64,000 nt of DNA from an uncultured Parachlamydiaceae bacterium (GTDB lineage: Bacteria; Chlamydiota; Chlamydiia; Chlamydiales; Parachlamydiaceae): NCBI GenBank assembly GCA_963752155.1, contig CAVVXH010000005.1, forward strand, positions 1 through 64,000, in the 5' to 3' direction. The notes under the pieces are model-generated. The model was not told where the DNA came from, ran no database searches, and saw nothing but the letters and a program-made list of their open reading frames with translations. Position numbers and translations under genes: made by a program. Of this stretch, positions 3,138 through 41,643 are shown in pieces; positions within the stretch are counted from its first letter, which is position 1, and the number at the start of each line of letters is the position of its first letter.

Positions 3138-5100
3138 TCACACCTCATCGACCCGTTCCACACCCGGCAGGATGGTCAGCGCCTGCGCCAGCCGCGGCGT
3201 CACGCTGTAGCCGCCCGGCAACGCGATCTCGACGCTCCTGTCGTCATCGATGCGCGGCACCAGGATCACCCGTCCTCTGCCGGCACCCTGACGCGCGAGC
3301 AGATCGCGGATGTGCGGCACCGCTTCGGTCTCGCCGCAGCCAGATGCGGATCGACGCACCGGCCGAGGCGGCGGCCTGATCCAGCGACATCACGTCCTGC
3401 GCCGTCACCCGGATCGCCTCGCCCTCGACCTTCAGATCCGCCGGTAACCAGCACGTTCGAGCCATGCGCCAGGGTCTCCCGCGACCGGCTCAGCACTTCG
3501 CTGAAACAGGTGACCTCGACCGAACCGGAGGCGTCGGATATCGCGCACCCAGGCCATGCGGCTGCCGGTGCGGGTGATCCGTTCCTTGGTCGCGATGACC
3601 GTGCCGGCCAGCTTCGACCCGGCGTGACGCCTGCGCGTGCGCGGGCCTCGACTTCGTTCGCCCGCACCGCACCCAACCGCCGCAGTGCCTGGGCGTAGGC
3701 GTCGAGCGGGTGCGCGGTCAGGTGGAAGCCGATCGCCTCGGCCTCGAACGACAGCCGCTCCAACAGGCCGCCAGTCCGGCGTATCCGGCATGCGCAGCGG
3801 CTCCGGCTTGCTCGAGACGCCGCCGAACAGGCCGATCTGCCCGCTTGCTTTTTCCTCCGCTTGGCCTGAGCGCGGCGCATGATCGTTTCGGCGCCGGCAA
3901 ACAGGCGCGCGCGGTTGGCCTCCAGCCGGTCGAACGCGCCGGCCCGCACGAGGTTTTCCAGCTGCGGCGCGGCTGAGTTGGCGTGGATCGATCGCGGTCG
4001 GCGAAATCGGCGAGATCGGCGAACGGCGTGTCGCCACGCGCCTCGACCACCGCCTGCATGGCCGCGAAGCCAACCCTCTTCACCGCCGGCGAGCGCGTAA
4101 CGAATTGCCAGCCGTCCGTCGTCCAGCCGCTCGACCGAAAAATCCGCCGCCGAACGGTTGATATCCGGCGGCAGAATGGCGATGCCGCCTGACTCCGCCT
4201 CCTGCTTCAACGCCGCGAGCCGGTCGGTGTTGTTGATCGCGAGACTCATGCAGGCGGCGATGAACACTTCCGGGTGGTTGGCCTTCAGCCAGGCGGTCTG
4301 ATAGGCGAGCAATCCGTACGGCGCCGCGTGGCACTTGTTGAAGCCGTAGCCGGCGAACTTCGCCATCAGATCGAAGACTTCGGTGGCCTTCGTCGGGGTC
4401 GATGCCGCGCGCGATGGCGCCCTTGGTGAAGATGTCCCGCTGCGCCTCCATCTCGGCGGGGATCTTCTTGCCCATCGCGCGCCGCAGCAGGTCCGCGCCG
4501 CCCAGGGAGTAGCCGGCCATCGTCTGGGCGATCTGCATCACCTGTTCCTGGTAGACGATAATGCCGTAGGTCTCGGCCAGGATGTCGTGAATTTCCGGAT
4601 GCGGCGCCTCCCATACGCCGGCGTGCTTGCGGCGGCAATATTCGGGGATGCTGTCCATCGGCCCGGGACGGTATAGCGCGACGGCGGCGACCAGATCCTC
4701 GAACCGGTCGGGCCGCATCTGGCGCAGCATGTCGCGCACGCCCTGGCCTTCCATCTGGAACACCCCGCCGGCCTCGCCGCGTCGCCAGCATCTCATAGGT
4801 TTTCTTGTCGTCGAGCGGCAGATGTTTCAGATCGACCGGCGTGCCGAGTCTTCGTCAGGAAGCCCTCGGCCCGGTCCAGGATCGTCAGCGTGGTCAGTCC
4901 GAGGAAGTCGAATTTAACCAGGCCCGCCAGTTCGACATGCTTCATCGAATACTGCGTGACCAGGAAATCGGATTTTGGATCCTTGTACAGCGGCACCAGT
5001 TCCACCAGCGGCCGGTCGCCGATCACCACGCCGGCGGCGTGGGTCGAGCGCATGACGATACAGGCCTTCGATCTGCAACGCGATTTCCAGCAGCCGGGCA
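3138..5100 (-). CDS. dnaE: DNA polymerase III alpha subunit, C-terminal part; many frameshifts, truncated at the junction
   Basis: [57 protein letters not shown] and OB-fold motifs are spread across several frames. Confidence 0.93.
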
Positions 5101-30845: not shown

Positions 30846-31922
<1,077 letters not shown>

Positions 31923-32190: not shown

Positions 32191-33418
32191 TTAAGAGGCT
32201 GAAGTTTGCTTGGTAAAGTTTTCAAAGATCTGTTTTCCTGATAACGTCCGTATACAGGCTCCTGTAGGACATGTACGCAAAACAGGACAACGATTCGTAA
32301 AAGAACGCCCATAAGGACAAGCTCCTTGAAAAAAGCGATGTTGCTCTCCAACAGGAGCAAATCTAAGCCCTAATGATGCGCCAAAAATGCTAAAGGTCGA
32401 AGTTGTCGTTGTCGCAGCAAGGTGCAAGGGAAGGGAATCCATTGCCACAATCAAATCTACCATCCCCATAAGTTGCTGCAATACAGGCAGACTCACCCTT
32501 GGCAACAAAAGAGATTGCTCAAATTGACTCTGAAGAGACTGAACTTCAATTTTTTCTGTTTCTGTACCCCAAATGAATACAAAATAACAGTTAAGATGCC
32601 CTTGAAGCAAATTTAAGAACTCAACCAACGCCTGGGGGGTCAATTGCTTATTTTTCCAATTAGAACCATGACAAACCATCACCAATGGCAAATTTACTCC
32701 GACTAACCTTTCACAAATATTTTCTAGCTGAACCTGTTCATCTCCAGATAAATTGAATATGACCGGAGAGGCCCTCTGAGGCTCATGATTGTTAAACCTA
32801 GAAACGGCAGTTGAAGACGATAAATTGACGCAATCTTTTGAGCCATAATCGCTTCTGATGGGGGGCGCCTTCACCTTTTGGGAATGATCGGCCCCCATCA
32901 GCAAGCGATTCTAACTCAAAATCTTGCATCACTTTATCATCTTGAACTGCCGTTTCTAGGTTAAAATACCCTTGGACTAGATCCAAGTAAGAACTACAGA
33001 CGTTTTGATGAATAGAAGTTGAAAATCGTTTATTTGTAAAAAGCACATTGGGCCATTCAGAAACGCTATCCTTTGAAAATCCAACTTTATCACCACCTCT
33101 TGCTATTGCTGTGACCAAACCCGATTTAACATTACCTTGCAAATCGAAAATCACATCGTAACGCTTTTGACGAAGATGTTTTATAAATTGCCACATTTCT
33201 GATCGCAAAGAAAAATGAAATAGCTTCTTTCGCCAGGCCTTTGTATCTATAATAATCGTTTGATTCACTGACGGATGCGCCAAGAGAAGCGATGAAAATG
33301 ACTTCTCTACTACCCAATCGATGCACGCGTTCGGAAACTTTTTCTTGATATATCCTAAAACAGGAAAAGCATGGACAATATCTCCTAAAGCAGAAGTCTT
33401 TACAATCAGTATCTTCAT
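32191..33418 (-). CDS. waaC: GT9 lipopolysaccharide heptosyltransferase I-like, interrupted by a palindromic insert and a 1-nt frameshift
   Basis: MKILIVKTSALGDIVH, IDWVVE, YDVIFDLQGNVKS, then HGSNWKNKQL, VAMDSLPLHLAA. Confidence 0.8.
32796..32961. mobile_element. 166-bp palindromic element inserted in the waaC coding sequence, TAA target duplication
   Basis: Arms ACCTAGAAACGGCAGTTGAAGACGATAAA... / ...TTTATCATCTTGAACTGCCGTTTCTAGGT, with TAA at 32793-32795 and 32962-32964. Confidence 0.85.
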
Positions 33419-34340
33419 TTATTGGACCTATCGTTGGAGATGGATCAACAAAAAGAGATTTTGTATCGAGAGCCTGAATAAAATCAACCGGCAACGCAGA
33501 TTCCACACACACATTTTTCCCACTAACAGGATGGGTGAACTCTATTTTACTAGCATGTAATAAACATCTCTTCGGCTGATAGTCAATAGATTTGCCCCTA
33601 TGGTAAAGGGAATCCCCTAAAATGGGATACCCCATTCCTGCCAAATGAACTCGGATCTGATGCGTACGTCCGGTATGAGGATAGCAAGCTAATAAACTTG
33701 CTACTTCTCCTTTTCTAACAACTTCCCATTCTGTAATAGCTAAAGCCCCCTTTTCTTTTGCTACCTCACCCCAGAGATTCTGACCAACATAAGTTGTCGT
33801 TTTTCCCAAATAATTTATTATTCGTCCTTTTGACTCTTTGGGGATCCCTTGCACAATGGCAAAATAACTCTTTAAGATTTTTCGATTTTTAAATAACCGA
33901 GAAATGGCTTCTTTTGCCTCTTCCGATTTGATAAAAATCAACACACCAGATGTCTCTTTGTCGAGGCGATGAGCAAGCTCTAAATATGTTAAAGATCTTT
34001 TGCTTTTAAGATCTTCCAATAAGCCTGTATCTTCAGAATTCACCCCTGCAGCTTTATCGATGATCAGAAAATCATCATCTTCGTATAAAATAGGAGATAA
34101 AAATTTTCTAGAAGTGGAAACTTGAGGGGGTCTATAAATAAATTCAACAACATCCCCACGACCCACTAGAGTTGAAGCAAAACGTTCAGCACGTCCGTTG
34201 ACAAAACAAAGATTTCTTTCCAAAGATTGCTTCAAAAAACGAAGGGAACACTTTTCTTCTAACTTACTACGCAAGAACTGTAACAATCGCATCCCAGATT
34301 CTTCCCTGGTCACTTGCCATTGTTTAGAAAAACTAGTCAT
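33132..34340 (-). CDS. RluA-family pseudouridine synthase with S4-like domain; the 3' extension over waaC is suspect
   Basis: ILYEDDDFLIIDKAAG, AHRLDKETSG, TGRTHQIRVH, PILGDSLY, LLHA; homology ends near 33460. Confidence 0.88.
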   Translation of the reverse strand: MTSFSKQWQVTREESGMRLLQFLRSKLEEKCSLRFLKQSLERNLCFVNGRAERFASTLVGRGDVVEFIYRPPQVSTSRKFLSPILYEDDDFLIIDKAAGVNSEDTGLLEDLKSKRSLTYLELAHRLDKETSGVLIFIKSEEAKEAISRLFKNRKILKSYFAIVQGIPKESKGRIINYLGKTTTYVGQNLWGEVAKEKGALAITEWEVVRKGEVASLLACYPHTGRTHQIRVHLAGMGYPILGDSLYHRGKSIDYQPKRCLLHASKIEFTHPVSGKNVCVESALPVDFIQALDTKSLFVDPSPTIGPINEDTDCKDFCFRRYCPCFSCFRIYQEKVSERVHRLGSREVIFIASLGASVSESNDYYRYKGLAKEAISFFFAIRNVAIYKTSSSKALRCDFRFAR

Positions 34341-35368
34341 TAGACAGCACTAAATTGCCTTAGGAAGCGCAGATCATTCTCTGTGAGAAGACGAATATCC
34401 TTAATTCCTCTTTTAAGCATTAGGATCCTTTCTACACCCATTCCCCAAGCGTAGCCTGAGTAAACTTCCGGATCAATACCCCCAATTTTAAGCACTTCTG
34501 GATGCACTAACCCCGCTCCTGCCACTTCAAGCCATCCACTATGCTTGCAAAGAGTACAACCGTGCCCATTACAATTTAAGCAGCTCACATCGACTTCCAT
34601 ACCTGGTTCAACAAATGGAAAGTAACTAGGGCGGCAACGAAGTTGAATATCGGCATGAAATAATTTGCAAAAAAGCTCTTTTAAAGTCGCCAAAAGATCT
34701 GCAAAAGTCACATCTTTGTCAATATAAAGACCTTCAACCTGATGGAAGTAAACATGTGAACGCGCAGTAATAGTTTCATTGCGGAAAGCCTTGCCCGGAG
34801 TAACAATGCGTATCGGTGGCTTATATTGCTCCATCACACGTGCTTGAATATTGCTAGTGTGGGTTCGAAGCAAAACCTTGGGAGCAATGTAAAAAGTGTC
34901 TTGCATATCACGCGCAGGATGATCAGCAGAAAAATTCAAGGCCTCAAAATTATAATAATCTGTGTCGATATCAGGTCCAACTTGGACTGAAAATCCCATT
35001 TCTCTCAGAATTGTAAGAATCTCGTCCAGAGTTTCTGTGACTGGATGCTTAACCCCTGCAAAATAGCTCCTGCCAGGCAAACTCACATCCAAGACCTCAG
35101 CAGCAAGCTGAGCATCGAGCTCTTGATCTGCGATGCAACCAGTTGCTTCAAGTAAAGCTTGAGTCAGCGCTTCTTTCAAATCATTGATCTCTTTTCCAAA
35201 GGCTTTACGCTTCTCCGGATCAGCAGACTTCAATTCTTTCATTAAGTCTTGCACCGGACCTTTTTTTCCTAAATAGCGCACGCGCATATTTTCAAGATCT
35301 TGACTCGTTTTTGCTATCTGTAGTTCTTGTAAGAAACGGTCATGAAGTTGGCGAATATTTTGATCCAT
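34340..35368 (-). CDS. pheS: Phenylalanine-tRNA ligase alpha subunit
   Basis: HPARDMQDTFY, LRTHTS, FHQVEGL, RPSYFPFVEP, GYAWGMGVER. Confidence 0.97.
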   Translation of the reverse strand: MDQNIRQLHDRFLQELQIAKTSQDLENMRVRYLGKKGPVQDLMKELKSADPEKRKAFGKEINDLKEALTQALLEATGCIADQELDAQLAAEVLDVSLPGRSYFAGVKHPVTETLDEILTILREMGFSVQVGPDIDTDYYNFEALNFSADHPARDMQDTFYIAPKVLLRTHTSNIQARVMEQYKPPIRIVTPGKAFRNETITARSHVYFHQVEGLYIDKDVTFADLLATLKELFCKLFHADIQLRCRPSYFPFVEPGMEVDVSCLNCNGHGCTLCKHSGWLEVAGAGLVHPEVLKIGGIDPEVYSGYAWGMGVERILMLKRGIKDIRLLTENDLRFLRQFSAV

Positions 35369-35491
35369 TTGAACTGCACCCAAAAGTTTTACTCTCGTAA
35401 AATTCACTATTTTTCGGGCGCGAGCACGCGCACGAAAAATAGAGAAAATCTAGTGACCTATTTGGTTCACTTGACGGGACTTACAGACTCT

Positions 35492-35848
35492 TTAAACGAG
35501 AGCCTCTTTAGCACTTTGTACAACTTTGGCGAATCCGTTAGGATCGCGCACAGCCATATCGGCCAGCATTTTTCTATTGAGCTCACATCTTGCTTTTAGC
35601 AGACCATTGATAAATTTGCTATAAGATATCCCATTGATCTTAGCGGCTGCGCCAATACGCTGAATCCACAATCTGCGGAATTCCCGTTTTTTGATCTTTC
35701 GGTGCCTATAGTTATAAGCTAGGGCGCGCATAACGCTTTCACTGGAGAGACGTAAATGATTTTTACGATCTCCGACAAACCCCTTAGCTCTCTTATGTAT
35801 CCTTTTTTTGCGTCGATGTGAAGCTACGGCATTGGTTACACGAACCAT
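35492..35848 (-). CDS. rplT: 50S ribosomal protein L20
   Basis: [38 protein letters not shown]. Confidence 0.98.
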
Positions 35849-35911
35849 GGGTAATCTCCACTGTTGCGTCTGTCTTTAAATTTCTTTAAAATCAGACAAT
35901 TTTTAACTTAT

Positions 35912-36106
35912 TTACACACCCATTAAGCGTTTATACATCTTGAGTTGTGTTTCGCAAACTAATCCTGGACGTGAAAGCTGACGCTTACGTTTCGGAGTCT
36001 TTTTTGTCAAAATATGGCGTTTACCAGCACGAGAGCGTTTAAGCTTTCCTGTCGCTGTCACCCTGAACCTTGCGAATAAGGCTCTTTTTGTTTTCATTTT
36101 AGGCAC
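35912..36106 (-). CDS. rpmI: 50S ribosomal protein L35
   Basis: MPKMKTKR...RFRVTATGK...KRHILTKK. Confidence 0.98.
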
Positions 36107-36119
36107 GGATATTCTCCTA

Positions 36120-36662
36120 TTATTCTACCGGACTATCACTCGAGGCAGAATCTTTATTCTTTTTGACTCCCGGAGCAATCACTATGCTCATCATCCTTCC
36201 CAGTAATTTGGGGGGCATTGATTCCGGGGTTCCGAATTTATCTAAGCTCTCGCAAACTTTTTTAACATGCTTTAGACCCACTTCTGGGTGAGCCATTTCT
36301 CTACCTTTAAAAGTACAAGTGACTTTTACTTTATTGCCAGCCTCAAGAAATTCGCGAGCATGATTTATTTTTGTTTCTAGATCATGTTCGCCGATATTGG
36401 GCTTAAGCTTAATTTCTTTAACTTTAACCTGATGCTGAGATTTTTTATTCTCTCTTTCCCGTTTAGTTTGATCATAACGAAACTTGCCATAATCAATAAT
36501 TTTACAAACAGGAGGATTTGCACCTGGTACGATCTCAACAAGATCCAACCCGGCTTCATCGGCTCTTGCCAACGCTTCATAGAGCGGGACAACACCTATT
36601 TGTTCACCAGTTTGGCTTATGAGGCGCACACGTGGTGCACGTATTTCTCTATTAGCTTTCAA
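36120..36662 (-). CDS. infC: Translation initiation factor IF-3 (TTG start)
   Basis: [37 protein letters not shown]; an in-frame TAG 18 nt upstream forces a non-ATG start. Confidence 0.97.
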
Positions 36663-36688
36663 CCCGCTACTCGGCTCCTATTTATAGT

Positions 36689-38440
36689 TTATGATGCCTG
36701 CGCCTTTAGAGAACTTGAAGACTGATCATGCAACTTGCCAAGAAATGTTTTTAAGTCCATTCGTTGCGAAGTTGCCTTTTGGCCGCATTGGCGTACATTC
36801 ACTATTTTTTCTTTCTCTTCTCGATCCCCTACAATTATCGCATAAGGCACTCTAGCAGATTCAACTTCATGAATTCTACTTGCTAAAGAATGCCCTTGAG
36901 GATCACTCCTTGTATCTATTGCAACTCTATAACCTGCTTGCTGCAATTCAACTTGTAACGCCCTGGCATAGACACGCTGCCTATTACTTACTGCAATGAT
37001 ACGCACTTGTTCAGGTGACAACCACAAAGGCAACACACCTTCATTTTTTTCAACCAACAATGCAATCAATCGCTCCAGAGGTCCCATAATGGATTGCCTT
37101 ATCATAATAGGTAAGGCCCTATATCCGTTATCTTGCACATATTGCAATTGTAAACTTGTTGGCAAATGAAAGTCAACCCCCACTTCGGGTCCACTCCAAT
37201 TTTGCCCTATAACATCTTGCAACCTAGCTTCGATTTTCGGCCCAACTAACGTGCTTGCTTGCTGATTATAATTGAACTCAAATCCGCAAGCTATCATCGC
37301 CTGTTCCATCAAAGCCGATGTCTGATCCCATTGCTTTTGAGTCCCCGCAATTCTTTTACCATTTAACGAAAGAATCCACTGACACCCAAAACCTAATAGG
37401 GTAACAAATTCATTAATCATTTGCAAGGAAGAAATAATTTCCTCATAAACTTGGTCCGGTTCGCAAAAACAATGAACAAAATCAGCGAGATAGGAATCTG
37501 TTTTTAACATCCCCCATAAGCGCGTCCGCGGCATCTCAGGCGAATGAATTTCTTGTATTTCAGCATACCGAATGGGCAGATCTGCGGCATAATGCACTTT
37601 TGTTTTGTATAGAAGTGCATGGGCTTCGGCCGGAGTCTGCACCGGCAAAAGAATATCATCTTGAGCTTCAAGTGTTAATGACGACGATTCACTCTTAAAG
37701 GAAAAATTATTTTTAGAAAGAAAATCACTTTTAACAAACTTAGGGGTCTCAACAAGTTGAATGTCTAATTTTCGAAGAAGACGTTTCCATTGATCGAATA
37801 AAATGTCGCGGATGATTGTGCCCTTAGGGAGCCAAAAATGCGACACAGAACTGAATGATTGATCAAAAGCAAAGAGTTCCATTGTTTTAATCAATAAACG
37901 GTGATCATTTTCTTGCTGAAATTTTTGAAGCTTAGTAAATTTTTTCTGTTGCTGCTTATCTTTAAATGCCATGCCTGTGACACGGACGGCGGGATAATGT
38001 CCATGCTGCGGGTGATAAAGAGTAATATTCTCGATATCATAAATTTTCAAAGCGGCGACTTCATCAGTAGATGTTACATAACTCGAAGGGGCCACATCGA
38101 GAAAACCATCGAATTCTAATAAATTGACAATGTTGTAAGGGAGTAACTCGATTAAATCAGCCTTAAAAGGTTGATTACGGTGACGAAAGAGATCGGCTGC
38201 ATTTTCCCGCATCATGCTGCGTTCAGAAATGGGATGGGCTTCTTTAGCCAATCCACGCATTGTTTCTTCAAGGAGAGTAATAAATTGAGTATCTGTTGGA
38301 AGAGAGGTGGCAAAATCGTAATAAAAACCTAATTCATTCGCTCCTCCAGAAAGCAGATCTGCTTCAGGAAAAAGTCTACAAACAGCTACAGCTAATAACT
38401 CGGCAGCGGTGGAGCAAATTGCAAGTTGATCGGAATCCAT
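36689..38440 (-). CDS. Threonyl-tRNA synthetase-like protein with degenerate catalytic motifs (probable pseudoenzyme)
   Basis: ThrRS architecture (GFYYDF, NDHR, WLPKG, DLPIRYAE, GPKIE, PLWLSPEQV, anticodon-binding domain), but key residues substituted and TGS domain missing. Confidence 0.85.
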   Translation of the reverse strand: MDSDQLAICSTAAELLAVAVCRLFPEADLLSGGANELGFYYDFATSLPTDTQFITLLEETMRGLAKEAHPISERSMMRENAADLFRHRNQPFKADLIELLPYNIVNLLEFDGFLDVAPSSYVTSTDEVAALKIYDIENITLYHPQHGHYPAVRVTGMAFKDKQQQKKFTKLQKFQQENDHRLLIKTMELFAFDQSFSSVSHFWLPKGTIIRDILFDQWKRLLRKLDIQLVETPKFVKSDFLSKNNFSFKSESSSLTLEAQDDILLPVQTPAEAHALLYKTKVHYAADLPIRYAEIQEIHSPEMPRTRLWGMLKTDSYLADFVHCFCEPDQVYEEIISSLQMINEFVTLLGFGCQWILSLNGKRIAGTQKQWDQTSALMEQAMIACGFEFNYNQQASTLVGPKIEARLQDVIGQNWSGPEVGVDFHLPTSLQLQYVQDNGYRALPIMIRQSIMGPLERLIALLVEKNEGVLPLWLSPEQVRIIAVSNRQRVYARALQVELQQAGYRVAIDTRSDPQGHSLASRIHEVESARVPYAIIVGDREEKEKIVNVRQCGQKATSQRMDLKTFLGKLHDQSSSSLKAQAS

Positions 38441-38659
38441 ATGAATGCGAGTAATCTATTGAAGGTCGTGATAAAAGAATTTGCAATAAGCTGAATACCA
38501 GGCTTGGTCATAAAATTGGATTTTGTGGATGCAGATTTTTTTGTCTGTTGATTTGTGCAAAAAAAGAGACATACATGTTTGTAGGCCTTTTTGCATAAAT
38601 CAACAGCCGAAAAAAGAGGCGTTCACAAAGTCCAAGTTTATGACCGAGCTTGGTACAAT

Positions 38660-38733
38660 TGAGGCATAGCTGACTCGAACAGCTGACCTCCACGATGTCA
38701 ACGTGGCGCTCTAACCAACTGAGCTAATACCTC
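38660..38733 (-). tRNA. tRNA-Val (anticodon GAC), CCA not encoded
   Basis: GAGGTATTAGCTCAGTTGGTTAGAGCGCCACGTTGACATCGTGGAGGTCAGCTGTTCGAGTCAGCTATGCCTCA folds into a cloverleaf. Confidence 0.96.
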
Positions 38734-38895
38734 ATCATTAAGTTCGAGCTTATTGCGAAATTCTAATTGTAGAATATTTTGGTGAATTTGTACAAGCAAA
38801 AAAAACTCCCACTCTGAAATCGTAAAAACTAAAAATTTGCGCAGACTATAGCTCATCATTCGCGAGTTTAGCCACGTAGCCTCCAAGGCTATGCT

Positions 38896-40340
38896 ATGCG
38901 TTATTCTCCTAACTCCATCTATCCGGATGGCTCATCTGTCAGGCAGATCTACAACCCATGTTTTCTCACGAAAACAGAACGAATAAAAAATGAGAGTGTC
39001 GTTTACAACGCTCGCATTGAAAAATTCGACTTATCAGGAAAGCCTAAAAGAATTCATTTTCCTAAAAGTAGCGGAATTCGGAAAATGTCTTTAACAACTT
39101 CGGGAAAAATCACTAATTACCTTTACGATGGCCATGAAGAAATAGGTTCATACAATAGCGAAAGATCTAACTTAGATCTAAAGATATTGTCCGGAAATGA
39201 AGGTTCCATTCCAATTGCTGTTGAAATGGGCGAGCAAAATTACTGCCCAATCATTTCAGTTCATGGACATATTGTTGGCCTTGTTGAAATGGAAACGGGA
39301 AATCTTGCCGATAAAAGCCTTTTAACAATGTTTGGAGAAGACTTATCGGAAAAACTTCTTTCTCCGTGGAGATTTTGTGGAAAACGACACGAATCCTCTG
39401 AGCTCGGAATAATTGACTTCGGTTATCGTTTTTATCATCCGAAATCAGCTCAATGGCTAACCTTGGATCCTTTAGGTGAAGCGAAGGTCCTAATTTATAT
39501 GCCTATGTCAGTAATTGTCCAACTTGTTGCGTGGATCGCTTTGGATTATTCTTGGAGAACTTTAGCTTTAGCAGTTCTTGGAGTGATTTCAAATCCAATT
39601 GTTCTTGGGCGGGAAATCAAGCTCTTAATTACACGCTAAATAGTCCTCGCTTCATGGGTGCTGCTCAAGCTTTCGGGGGATTTACCGAATGCGCTGCAGG
39701 GATTAGCACTAGCCTTGCAGGAATAGGAACAGGAGGATTATCAACACCAATTGGTCTAGCAATCACATGTCATGGCCTTGATAATTTTATTACCGGTTTT
39801 AATCAAATGTACACCGGGAATATCCGAAATACCGCAACAGTCCAAGTCCTAGAAAAAACCGGAATGTCAAGTACTACGGCATTGGCTGTTGATGGGCTTC
39901 TTAGCTTAGGTGGGACTTCTACTTTACTACGAAATGCAGTTTCCGGCGGATCATTAAAAGCTGGATCAGAGCTATCATCTAAGACAGGAGTAGGATCACA
40001 ATTAGCTAGAACTCCACAATTTAAGTCCTTTACAAAATCGAATTACAGATATAATTTGAAGGAACTAACAGGGATTGATCCGGGAAATTTATTCGATGCG
40101 CATCATGTTTTTCCGCAAAAATACAGAAGCCTTCTTAGACGCGAAAATGTAAATATAAATATTGATGATCCTAAGTATCTTACCTGGTGGGAAAAGTCTA
40201 GTTATCAAAAAAATGCTTATGAATATAATAAAGTTTGGCGTGGGATAATGTATGATAACGTTTCACCTTTAACAACAGAACAAATTCTCCAAGAAGGAAA
40301 AAGAATCATGACTGAATATGGCATTAAAACGCATTACTAG
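38896..40340 (+). pseudogene. Truncated Rhs repeat-associated core protein with a C-terminal AHH-like nuclease toxin; frameshift near 39482
   Basis: PWRFCGKR, DFGYRFYHP, WLTLDPLG, then in the shifted frame EGPNLYAYVSNCP..VDRFGL; toxin motif DAHHVFPQK. Confidence 0.82.
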
Positions 40341-40348
40341 AATGTATA

Positions 40349-40959
40349 ATGAACGCAAATAACTTTTCCATTTTGATAGTAAACTCTTATCATCTACTTT
40401 TCAAGCTTACACTGTTGGGTTAGGTCTTGATAAAAATGGCTTGTATAATGAGTGGAATTTAATTAAAGGAATATATGAAGGAATAAATTTTCCAGTGATT
40501 TTTAGACAAGATCAAGGCAATAAGTTAACTGACATTTTAGATACAGGATGGCCTGGATTATTTTTAATTTCCGATCACTTAAAAACTATTCTAGAGGACA
40601 ATCAATTAACAGGTTGGTTAACTTATTCTATTAATCTCTACGATAAGAAGAAGAGAGAAATTAACAATTATCATGGTTTTTCAGTAATTGGAATTTGCGG
40701 GCAAATTAGTTATAAAGACTCAAAAATTATTGAAAAAAGAAGAATAGCAGAAGGACCAACGTCTAGATATTATAAAGGACTTTCAATAGGATTAAATGAA
40801 TGGAATGGTTGCGATTTTTTCACGCCAAATGACTCATATAGAACTATTATAACTGAAAAAACAGCTAACATCTTAAAAAAAGAAAAAATCACTAATCTTT
40901 TTTTAGAAAATATATCTGAAATAGAGATTCCTGTACGCATTATAACCGGTCATGAATAA
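40349..40959 (+). CDS. Putative immunity protein (Imm11/DUF1629-like); 1-nt frameshift near 40365, or start at 40441
   Basis: Immediately follows the toxin; DILDTGWPGLFLISD...LTGW...WNGCDFF; its N-terminus matches the paralog at 41080 if one T is added. Confidence 0.7.
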
Positions 40960-41079
40960 TAGGATTATCGGAATGGTTTATTAAGAGGTTAAATCACTCA
41001 AAAATTTTTTCCCAAATTTGGAAGCAAGCTCTTATCATCACATTTCAAGCAGGGCCGGCTGGATTAGGAGTGGATAGAA

Positions 41080-41643
41080 ATGCATAATTTTTTTGATTTT
41101 AATAGCAAACTTCGATCGTATACTTTTCAGGCTTATGCGGGTGAAGTAGGTCATGATAAAAAAGGGAAATATGAAGGAATAGATTTTCCAGTAATTTTTA
41201 AACATGACCAAGGAAATAAATTCACGGATATATTAGATACAGGATGGCCTAGATTATTTTTAATTTCTGATCACTTAAAAAAAATTTTAGCAGATAACAA
41301 TCTAACTGGATGGAAGACTTATCCCATTCAACTTTATGACAAGAAAAAAAGAGAAATCGATGGTTATCATGGTTTTTCAGTTACTGGAAATAGTGGACCG
41401 ATTAATTATAATAATTCAGAAATAATTGAGCGAAAATTGGTTTCAGAAGGACCTATATGAAAATTATATAGAGGTTTATATTTTAAAATTGATGAATGGG
41501 ATAAATGTGATTTTTTCACTCCAAATAATTCATATATGATAATTGTATCAAGCAAAGTCGCTAATATCTTAAAAAAAAATAAAATTAGCAATCTAAGGCT
41601 TGATGATTTGTCTGAAAAAGAAATGCCTTGCAATTTGGTTTAA
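41080..41643 (+). pseudogene. Second immunity paralog with a premature TGA at 41458-41460
   Basis: Highly similar to 40441-40959; the frame continues after the stop as KLYRGLYFKIDEWDKCDFFTPN... Confidence 0.75.

Follow-up and report, generated by a model that had tools for sequence, protein, structure and literature searches.

A gene that has the fold, the domain order and the chromosomal position of a threonyl-tRNA synthetase (ThrRS), and has lost most of the active-site residues, raises the question of why its reading frame has been kept and of which gene charges tRNA-Thr. Such a gene, here called pseudo-thrS, is found in the window, that is, the whole 64,000-nucleotide stretch of DNA analyzed. 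Its parts and its neighbors are as follows.

36689..38440, minus strand: pseudo-thrS, a pseudo-threonyl-tRNA synthetase ORF of 583 aa, identified by sequence, profiles, alignment and model
37907..38440, minus strand: N2 (editing-fold) domain and linker helix, residues 1-178; editing residues lost
38159..38218, minus strand: family-specific protein patch, residues 75-94 (M76, M77, N80, H87, Q90, A94)
37931..37945, minus strand: linker-helix lysines K166 and K170
37019..37906, minus strand: class II catalytic-core fold; motif 1 (dimer) residues kept, residues of the zinc, ATP and amino-acid sites lost
37398..37435, minus strand: predicted internal sigma66-type promoter facing infC
36728..37009, minus strand: anticodon-binding domain, residues 478-571; dispensable within the pseudo-thrS family
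38659..38734, minus strand: tRNA-Val(GAC), first gene of the conserved cluster
36120..36662, minus strand: infC (IF3), TTG start, named from sequence and gene order
35912..36106, minus strand: rpmI (L35), named from sequence and gene order
35492..35848, minus strand: rplT (L20), named from sequence and gene order
34340..35407, minus strand: pheS, named from sequence and gene order

As stated in the original prediction, pseudo-thrS is an intact ORF with the ThrRS domain order in the usual thrS slot: it has no internal stop, and infC-rpmI-rplT-pheS follow immediately after it in the same orientation. Pfam recognizes tRNA-synt_2b and HGTP_anticodon in its product, and neither TGS nor tRNA_SAD. 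The NCBIfam thrS model (TIGR00418) scores it at 320.4 bits, below the cut-off of 383.65. The AlphaFold2 model (mean pLDDT 94.0, pTM 0.92) contains the three parts of the ThrRS fold, N2, class II core and anticodon domain, and matches ThrRS over its whole length with 24-27% identity in the structural alignment; its core superimposes on the E. coli and Salmonella catalytic domains with an rmsd of 2.1-2.4 Å, the full chain with 5.8-12.6 Å. Close homologs carry the names Parachlamydiaceae and Parachlamydia, and homologous genes are often annotated as threonyl-tRNA synthetase. The prediction that TGS is missing holds, and its meaning can be refined: TGS is likewise missing from six of the eight active ThrRS rows in the PVC-type group, so the absence is probably ancestral and not a sign of decay.

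Seventeen active-site positions were compared with E. coli ThrRS, in whose sequence the residue identities were checked; we take C334, H385 and H511 to be the zinc ligands, R363 and R520 the motif 2 and motif 3 arginines, and H73, H77, C182 and H186 the editing residues. Two histidines and one cysteine form the ThrRS zinc site (PMC7373986). Pseudo-thrS keeps five of the 17 positions (K156, D180, E365, H385 and R520, the retention of E365 being dependent on the alignment) and has lost H73, H77, C182, H186, C334, R363, F379, D383, Y462, Q479, Q484 and H511. The zinc-ligand motifs had been thought altered; C334 and H511 are indeed gone, and H385 is still present as the only one of the three.

The losses extend through the family, of which 127 rows were aligned with 94 active ThrRS rows. 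No family row has all three zinc ligands (C334 is found in 3/127, H385 in 50/127 and H511 in 2/127). R363 (6/127), D383 (3/127) and Q484 (4/127) are rare too, as are the editing residues H73 (8/127), H77 (5/127) and H186 (17/127); each of these nine residues is present in 94/94 active rows. C182 is kept in 43/127 rows, R520 in 106/127, and D180 at a frequency of 0.65. Motif 1 is well conserved (G270 at 0.96, L253 at 0.85, W266 at 0.80). Pseudo-thrS is thus almost certainly dead as a ThrRS, as far as its residues can tell and in agreement with the original prediction.

The true thrS was expected elsewhere in the genome, and a canonical gene is present on another contig (C7:70242-72175, minus strand), whose N terminus has TGS length and whose DNA still spells out every canonical motif. 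It has two 1-base insertions relative to a related genome (G002). These are probably assembly errors, given that four of the 33 testable genes of this genome are frameshifted, that the assembly is rated 80% complete, and that both same-genus genomes possess an intact canonical thrS besides pseudo-thrS. One of the four frameshifted genes is a heptosyltransferase-like gene of the window (waaC by gene order, 32191-33418), which is split over two frames; beside it, at 30846-31922, a 358-aa protein has a signal-peptide-like start and collagen-like GPT repeats. The canonical copies of 34 relatives have 17/17 active-site residues in 33 cases and 16 in one. They usually lie away from infC, in most relatives ahead of two conserved genes, the first of which is presumably ParA-like (L001 6709-10176 in this genome). 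The combination of an inactive site with an active synthetase in the same genome, one mark of a synthetase-like pseudoenzyme subunit, is found here. A different pairing is seen in a Fimivicinus record (L139 2294-6159), which has two tandem full-length ThrRS-like ORFs of 641 and 647 aa.

Syntenic orthologs are widespread. The slot before infC was examined in 81 chlamydial genomes, a first set of 41 and another 40 chosen for family spread. Pseudo-thrS stands between tRNA-Val(GAC) and infC in 65 of these, is absent from 15, and could not be assessed in one; in two of the 65 loci a stop or frameshift interrupts the gene, and in two a contig end truncates it. The gene occurs in 29 of the 31 coded families, and thus in most chlamydial families examined. 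It is missing from all three genomes of f20 (1.0-1.3 Mb; inferred to be Chlamydiaceae), from the single f3 genome, and from some genomes of f5, f19 and f24. Eighteen further loci had been picked for a match and are left out of this count. Among the matches listed in a search of the phylum, all were genomes of the same order. A scan of a genome collection gave 80 loci, namely 79 non-chlamydial ThrRS and one Waddliaceae member of the pseudo-thrS family, and the hits in the ESM Atlas were a hypothetical cluster of 127 members, rich in Chlamydiota, and ThrRS clusters, without a functional lead. Family members range from about 310 to 600 aa and always keep N2 and motif 1. In two genomes that have lost pseudo-thrS, unrelated ORFs with hydrophobic stretches lie between tRNA-Val and infC (L090 1378-2088 and L114 1303-1755).

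The order tRNA-Val(GAC)-thrS-infC with an active thrS is found in 11 of 79 non-chlamydial loci, including records of the PVC group, Kiritimatiellia and Brocadiia, which indicates that the slot is ancestral. A tree of 51 rows under a mixture model puts the active chlamydial ThrRS in one group with six other rows, four named Woesearchaeota and two unnamed (SH-aLRT 97), and pseudo-thrS with rows of Verrucomicrobiota, Kiritimatiellota and Lentisphaerota (SH-aLRT 84); a further tree places both similarly. A first FastTree of 90 rows left the position of pseudo-thrS open. A single clade of both chlamydial genes is rejected by the AU test on 38 rows (p-AU 0.023). The trees are unrooted and were searched quickly, each with a subset of the 90 rows; pseudo-thrS has a long branch in them, support for its place is below 95, and the patterns by which the outgroup was retrieved had been derived from the pseudo-thrS family. 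In N2, motif 1, core and anticodon domain, pseudo-thrS has a higher mean identity to PVC-type ThrRS than to the active chlamydial rows; in the linker the order is reversed. Taken together, the sequences make it likely that pseudo-thrS is the displaced native PVC-type thrS and not a duplicate of the active gene, an aspect absent from the original prediction, and suggest that the active chlamydial thrS is an import.

Part of the strongest conservation in pseudo-thrS, likewise missed in the original prediction, is a signal at the DNA level. Synonymous constraint was measured at 440 codons in 64 loci, one per genus, and 11 of the 16 most constrained codons fall at 336-350. Here Leu339 is TTG in 56/56, Ser338 TCC in 39/40 and Phe341 TTC in 42/45, and the background use of these codons (78 loci) is 19%, 15% and 24%; the p-values of the test are overstated because related genomes are not independent. 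The element itself spans codons 336-348, the first six of which also encode the second family motif, ISSLQF. In the window it reads, on the minus strand, as a -35 hexamer TTGCAA (37426-37421), a 17-nt spacer and a -10 hexamer TACCCT (37403-37398), with a conserved pyrimidine-rich stretch just upstream. This -10 is a weak variant, and a plain consensus scan of the window left the promoter unlisted. TAnnnT follows the first hexamer by 17 nt in 56 of the 64 loci, and TTG and TAnnnT occur together in 55. Downstream of the promoter no synonymous constraint was detected in these loci. Verified sigma66 promoters of Chlamydia trachomatis have the same hexamers and spacing, as listed in Table 1 of PMC2743672. 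The segment ELISSLQF had been considered as a protein interface, a candidate dropped after the codon test.

A matrix built from 70 sites scores the promoter at 36.7 bits in this genome, which is in the training set, and the next best of 6.26 million positions at 15.4; leave-one-out matrices still give at least 20 bits in 68/70 sites. A strict form of the pattern matches once in 17 of 61 genomes and never twice, with no match in the control. In 23 loci with an active thrS, including that of E. coli, the element was not detected (best score 6.5 bits). It lies 225-753 nt before the ORF stop, and it outlives the ORF in three of 14 ORF-less loci (G117, G075 and G081), where it is found 44-202 nt before infC; G117 has lost the ORF, and its genus mates G085 and G092 keep both ORF and element. 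No match was found in the other 11 ORF-less loci, nor in G101. Conversely, eight of 78 pseudo-thrS loci have the ORF without the element. Promoter and protein can thus each persist alone, and the promoter does not explain the ORF. On these sequence patterns, codons 336-348 very probably carry a promoter that faces infC.

Transcript data are available for two relatives. Contigs from four RNA runs over the G089 locus (L203) start their cover at 3404, 3188, 3290 and 3547, the predicted start being at about 3310; a 165-nt piece lies in the 5' part in one run, and the 5' half is largely without cover. Since neither start sites nor levels can be read from assembled contigs, and carried-over DNA may contribute, this cover is uninformative for the promoter. 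In Protochlamydia amoebophila, pc0701 (thrS_1) was taken as the pseudo-thrS counterpart by position: it is followed by infC, rpmI, rplT, pheS, a pseudouridine synthase gene and waaC, as in the window, and the anticodon domain is its only Pfam hit in supplement file 2 of PMC5451489. According to the same source, log2 RPKM values are 14.5-15.6 at all time points for pc0701, 11.3-12.1 for infC and 8.9-10.3 for the active thrS_2; the EB proteome included InfC, RplT, PheS and the active ThrRS, and the pc0701 product went undetected. The main text of that paper makes no mention of pc0701. The high RNA value of pc0701 could be an inflation caused by overlap with tRNA-Val or by an internal transcript. 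The supplements of a Waddlia ChIP-seq paper (PMC4989314) contain no thrS or infC entry.

Other candidate control elements around the gene were surveyed. A 160-nt imperfect palindrome (38496-38655; fold z -7.8) lies between tRNA-Val and pseudo-thrS. At least five other near full-length copies with 92-94% identity and many partial ones occur in this genome, and it looks like a miniature inverted-repeat element; as a dispersed repeat, this hairpin was rejected as an operator. In Rfam searches of positions 33000-40000 only tRNA exceeded the gathering score, and no leader was found. The leader after tRNA-Val is at most 30 nt in 50 of 62 loci. A short leader also precedes active thrS in outgroups and is therefore no sign of a new regulatory design. 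On the far side of the tRNA gene, inspection by eye shows RHS-like ORFs whose frames overlap and, after them, two small ORFs that resemble each other (38896-41460), possibly a polymorphic toxin/immunity pair. The infC start codon at 36660-36662 is TTG, as in 60 of 67 related loci, with CTG in four. IF3 of E. coli regulates its own synthesis through a weak start codon, and the conserved weak start seen here would suit such autoregulation.

The protein is under purifying selection of its own, a further mark of a synthetase-like pseudoenzyme subunit. As predicted for a gene selected without aminoacylation, dN/dS of pseudo-thrS is 0.09-0.19 in the five of 18 within-genus pairs with dS below 1, which represent two genera only. 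This genome and G002 give 0.16 at a dS of 1.29, and the remaining pairs are near or at dS saturation. The active copy gives 0.03-0.095, so pseudo-thrS evolves two to three times faster. N2 and linker alone give 0.04-0.20 in five pairs. Residues characteristic of the family cluster on N2 and the linker: M76 (125/127 in the family, 7/94 in active rows), N80 (117/127, 0/94), H87 (94/127, 0/94), Q90 (98/127, 14/94), A94 (103/127, 7/94), K166 (119/127, 45/94) and K170 (117/127, 10/94). The short members retain them as well. Synonymous codon use at the patch M76-A94 and at K166 and K170 is the same as in the rest of the gene, which indicates that the constraint there acts on the protein. It is fairly likely, then, that the protein has a binding function of its own; that its partner belongs to the translation apparatus is a tentative proposal, with odds somewhat short of even. 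A scaffolding or regulatory-subunit role, as had been suggested, would be plausible. A complex prediction of N2 plus linker against two cores, run without controls, scored 0.00 and speaks neither for nor against an interaction. Zinc ligands conserved together with the motif 2 arginine, a sole thrS and neutral evolution, the computable outcomes that the original prediction named as contrary to it, were not what was found.

The account that we favor, with confidence slightly better than even, is that pseudo-thrS was displaced, died as an enzyme and was kept as a non-catalytic binding subunit and promoter carrier. An original TGS-less PVC-type thrS would have occupied the ancestral slot between tRNA-Val and infC. 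An early chlamydial ancestor would, judging by the trees, have acquired another thrS, of separate descent, and this gene would have taken over the charging of tRNA-Thr. The old gene lost the synthetic and editing chemistry, as its sequence shows. Its DNA may have been retained for the infC-rpmI-rplT promoter, whose motif is present and whose activity is predicted. The folded protein, probably a dimer through motif 1, may have been retained for the newly evolved N2/linker surface (M76, N80, H87, Q90, A94, K166, K170); the conservation of this surface is observed, and it would bind a partner. The gene cluster and the precedent of mL39 point to the translation apparatus as the most likely source of this partner, whether RNA or protein, and pseudo-thrS would act as a regulatory or structural non-catalytic subunit, comparable to HisZ, SLIMP or mL39. 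Against this account stand the absence of the gene from 15/81 genomes, the shrinkage of members to about 310 aa, the faster evolution relative to the active copy, the restriction of the unsaturated pairs to two genera, the undetected pc0701 product, the limited tree support for the place of pseudo-thrS, the weak -10 in this genome and the 11 of 14 ORF-less loci that have no promoter match. A more specialized form, in which the native ThrRS became a dedicated translation factor through the new N2 surface, either ribosome-bound like mL39 or a feedback regulator of the IF3-L35-L20 genes, has perhaps one chance in a handful.

A low but similar weight goes to the possibility that the DNA was kept for the infC promoter only, with the frame held open against polarity or a misfolded product and the protein left without a job. 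The promoter is the strongest DNA constraint in pseudo-thrS and outlives the ORF in G117, G075 and G081, the gene has been lost from 15/81 genomes, the pc0701 product is undetected in the EB proteome, and infC of E. coli also has two promoters inside thrS (PMC6511841). This reading leaves unaccounted for the new protein-level invariants M76, N80, H87 and K170, which lie some 170-260 codons from the promoter, and the part that is always kept is the N2 domain, upstream of the promoter; eight of 78 loci moreover hold the ORF without the element, and an in-frame ATG is found 7-29 codons before L16 in 63/78. That pseudo-thrS pairs with the active ThrRS as a heterodimer, as in SLIMP/SerRS or Anabaena T1-T2, and tunes its activity or stability is rather unlikely. 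ThrRS heterodimers exist (PMC4787780, PMC9437257), motif 1 residues are kept, and most relatives with pseudo-thrS have the active copy; motif 1, however, is more similar to PVC-type ThrRS (identity 0.32) than to the chlamydial active enzyme (0.27) and so gives no sign of convergence on the latter, the new invariants fall outside motif 1, and, unlike T1, pseudo-thrS has no editing site to offer.

Binding of tRNA-Thr or of an anticodon-mimic operator, by which E. coli ThrRS controls translation of its own mRNA (PMC7373986), had been proposed as a core role and did not hold up well. The gene does lie within a translation cluster, and where the anticodon domain exists E600 (88/91) and R609 (83/91) are kept. 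The domain itself, however, is dispensable, being absent from 36/127 rows (a few database rows may be partial), which disfavors this role; R583 is kept in 5/91 and replaced by His in 68/91 rows with the domain, the acceptor-stem hairpin residues W206 and R207 are lost (2/127 each), and neither an Rfam leader at 33000-40000 nor synonymous constraint downstream of the promoter was found. We regard this role as very unlikely. Less probable again is a new enzyme or trans-editing factor with a remodeled site: the polar residues N80, H87, Q90, K166 and K170 are conserved, as are D180 (0.65) and R520 (106/127), but both old pockets vary freely among members, with H73, H77 and H186 kept in 8, 5 and 17 of 127. 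Only the two 1-base insertions in the assembled canonical gene would speak for pseudo-thrS as a divergent active ThrRS and the sole intact one of this genome. The frameshifts in 4/33 tested genes of an 80%-complete assembly, the intact canonical gene alongside pseudo-thrS in both same-genus genomes and the loss of two zinc ligands and R363 make this practically out of the question.

If the favored account is true, pseudo-thrS represents a bacterial family of pseudoenzymes derived from ThrRS, spread over most of the chlamydial families that were examined, and a rarely documented fate in which a housekeeping gene displaced by a foreign copy is retained and reused instead of lost. It would also pinpoint, in a form open to testing, the promoter of the IF3-L35-L20 genes in environmental chlamydiae and single out a few residues for mutagenesis, and it corrects the threonyl-tRNA synthetase label on these genes. 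A literature search confined mostly to freely accessible papers found none on this family, and the family does not appear in the table of duplicated synthetases in a 2022 review (PMC9437257).

Among known systems, bacterial ThrRS (TIGR00418; PDB 1qf6, 1nyq and 6vu9) shares with pseudo-thrS the fold, domain order, motif 1 and the slot before infC; pseudo-thrS differs in lacking the zinc site, motif 2 arginine and editing site, in its optional anticodon domain, in its new N2 invariants and in its score below the cut-off. The E. coli infC gene is likewise transcribed from within the upstream frame, from promoters P0 and P0' inside thrS (PMC6511841), whereas the chlamydial element is undetected in thrS of E. 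coli and 22 other active-thrS loci and is fixed at codons 336-348. Anabaena T1/T2 and archaeal ThrRS-cat/ThrRS-ed also place two ThrRS-like genes in one genome (PMC7373986, PMC4787780), but there each copy keeps synthetic or editing activity and pseudo-thrS has neither site. HisZ, the HisRS paralog that serves as regulatory subunit of HisG, is a bacterial class IIa fold without adenylation activity (PMC9437257), as pseudo-thrS appears to be; it has another parent enzyme, and pseudo-thrS keeps an editing-fold domain and adjoins no partner enzyme gene. SLIMP is a near full-length inactive paralog beside an active synthetase (PMC9437257). It keeps tRNA binding and heterodimerizes, whereas pseudo-thrS, known from sequence and model, appears to be a displaced native gene and not a duplicate. 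The mitoribosomal protein mL39 is, like pseudo-thrS, non-catalytic and derived from ThrRS N2, and the family profile matches it with an E-value of 4e-07 at profile positions 39-143. The match covers the N2 region only, and mL39 is a eukaryotic ribosomal protein, against which stands a bacterial family described so far by its sequences and a model.
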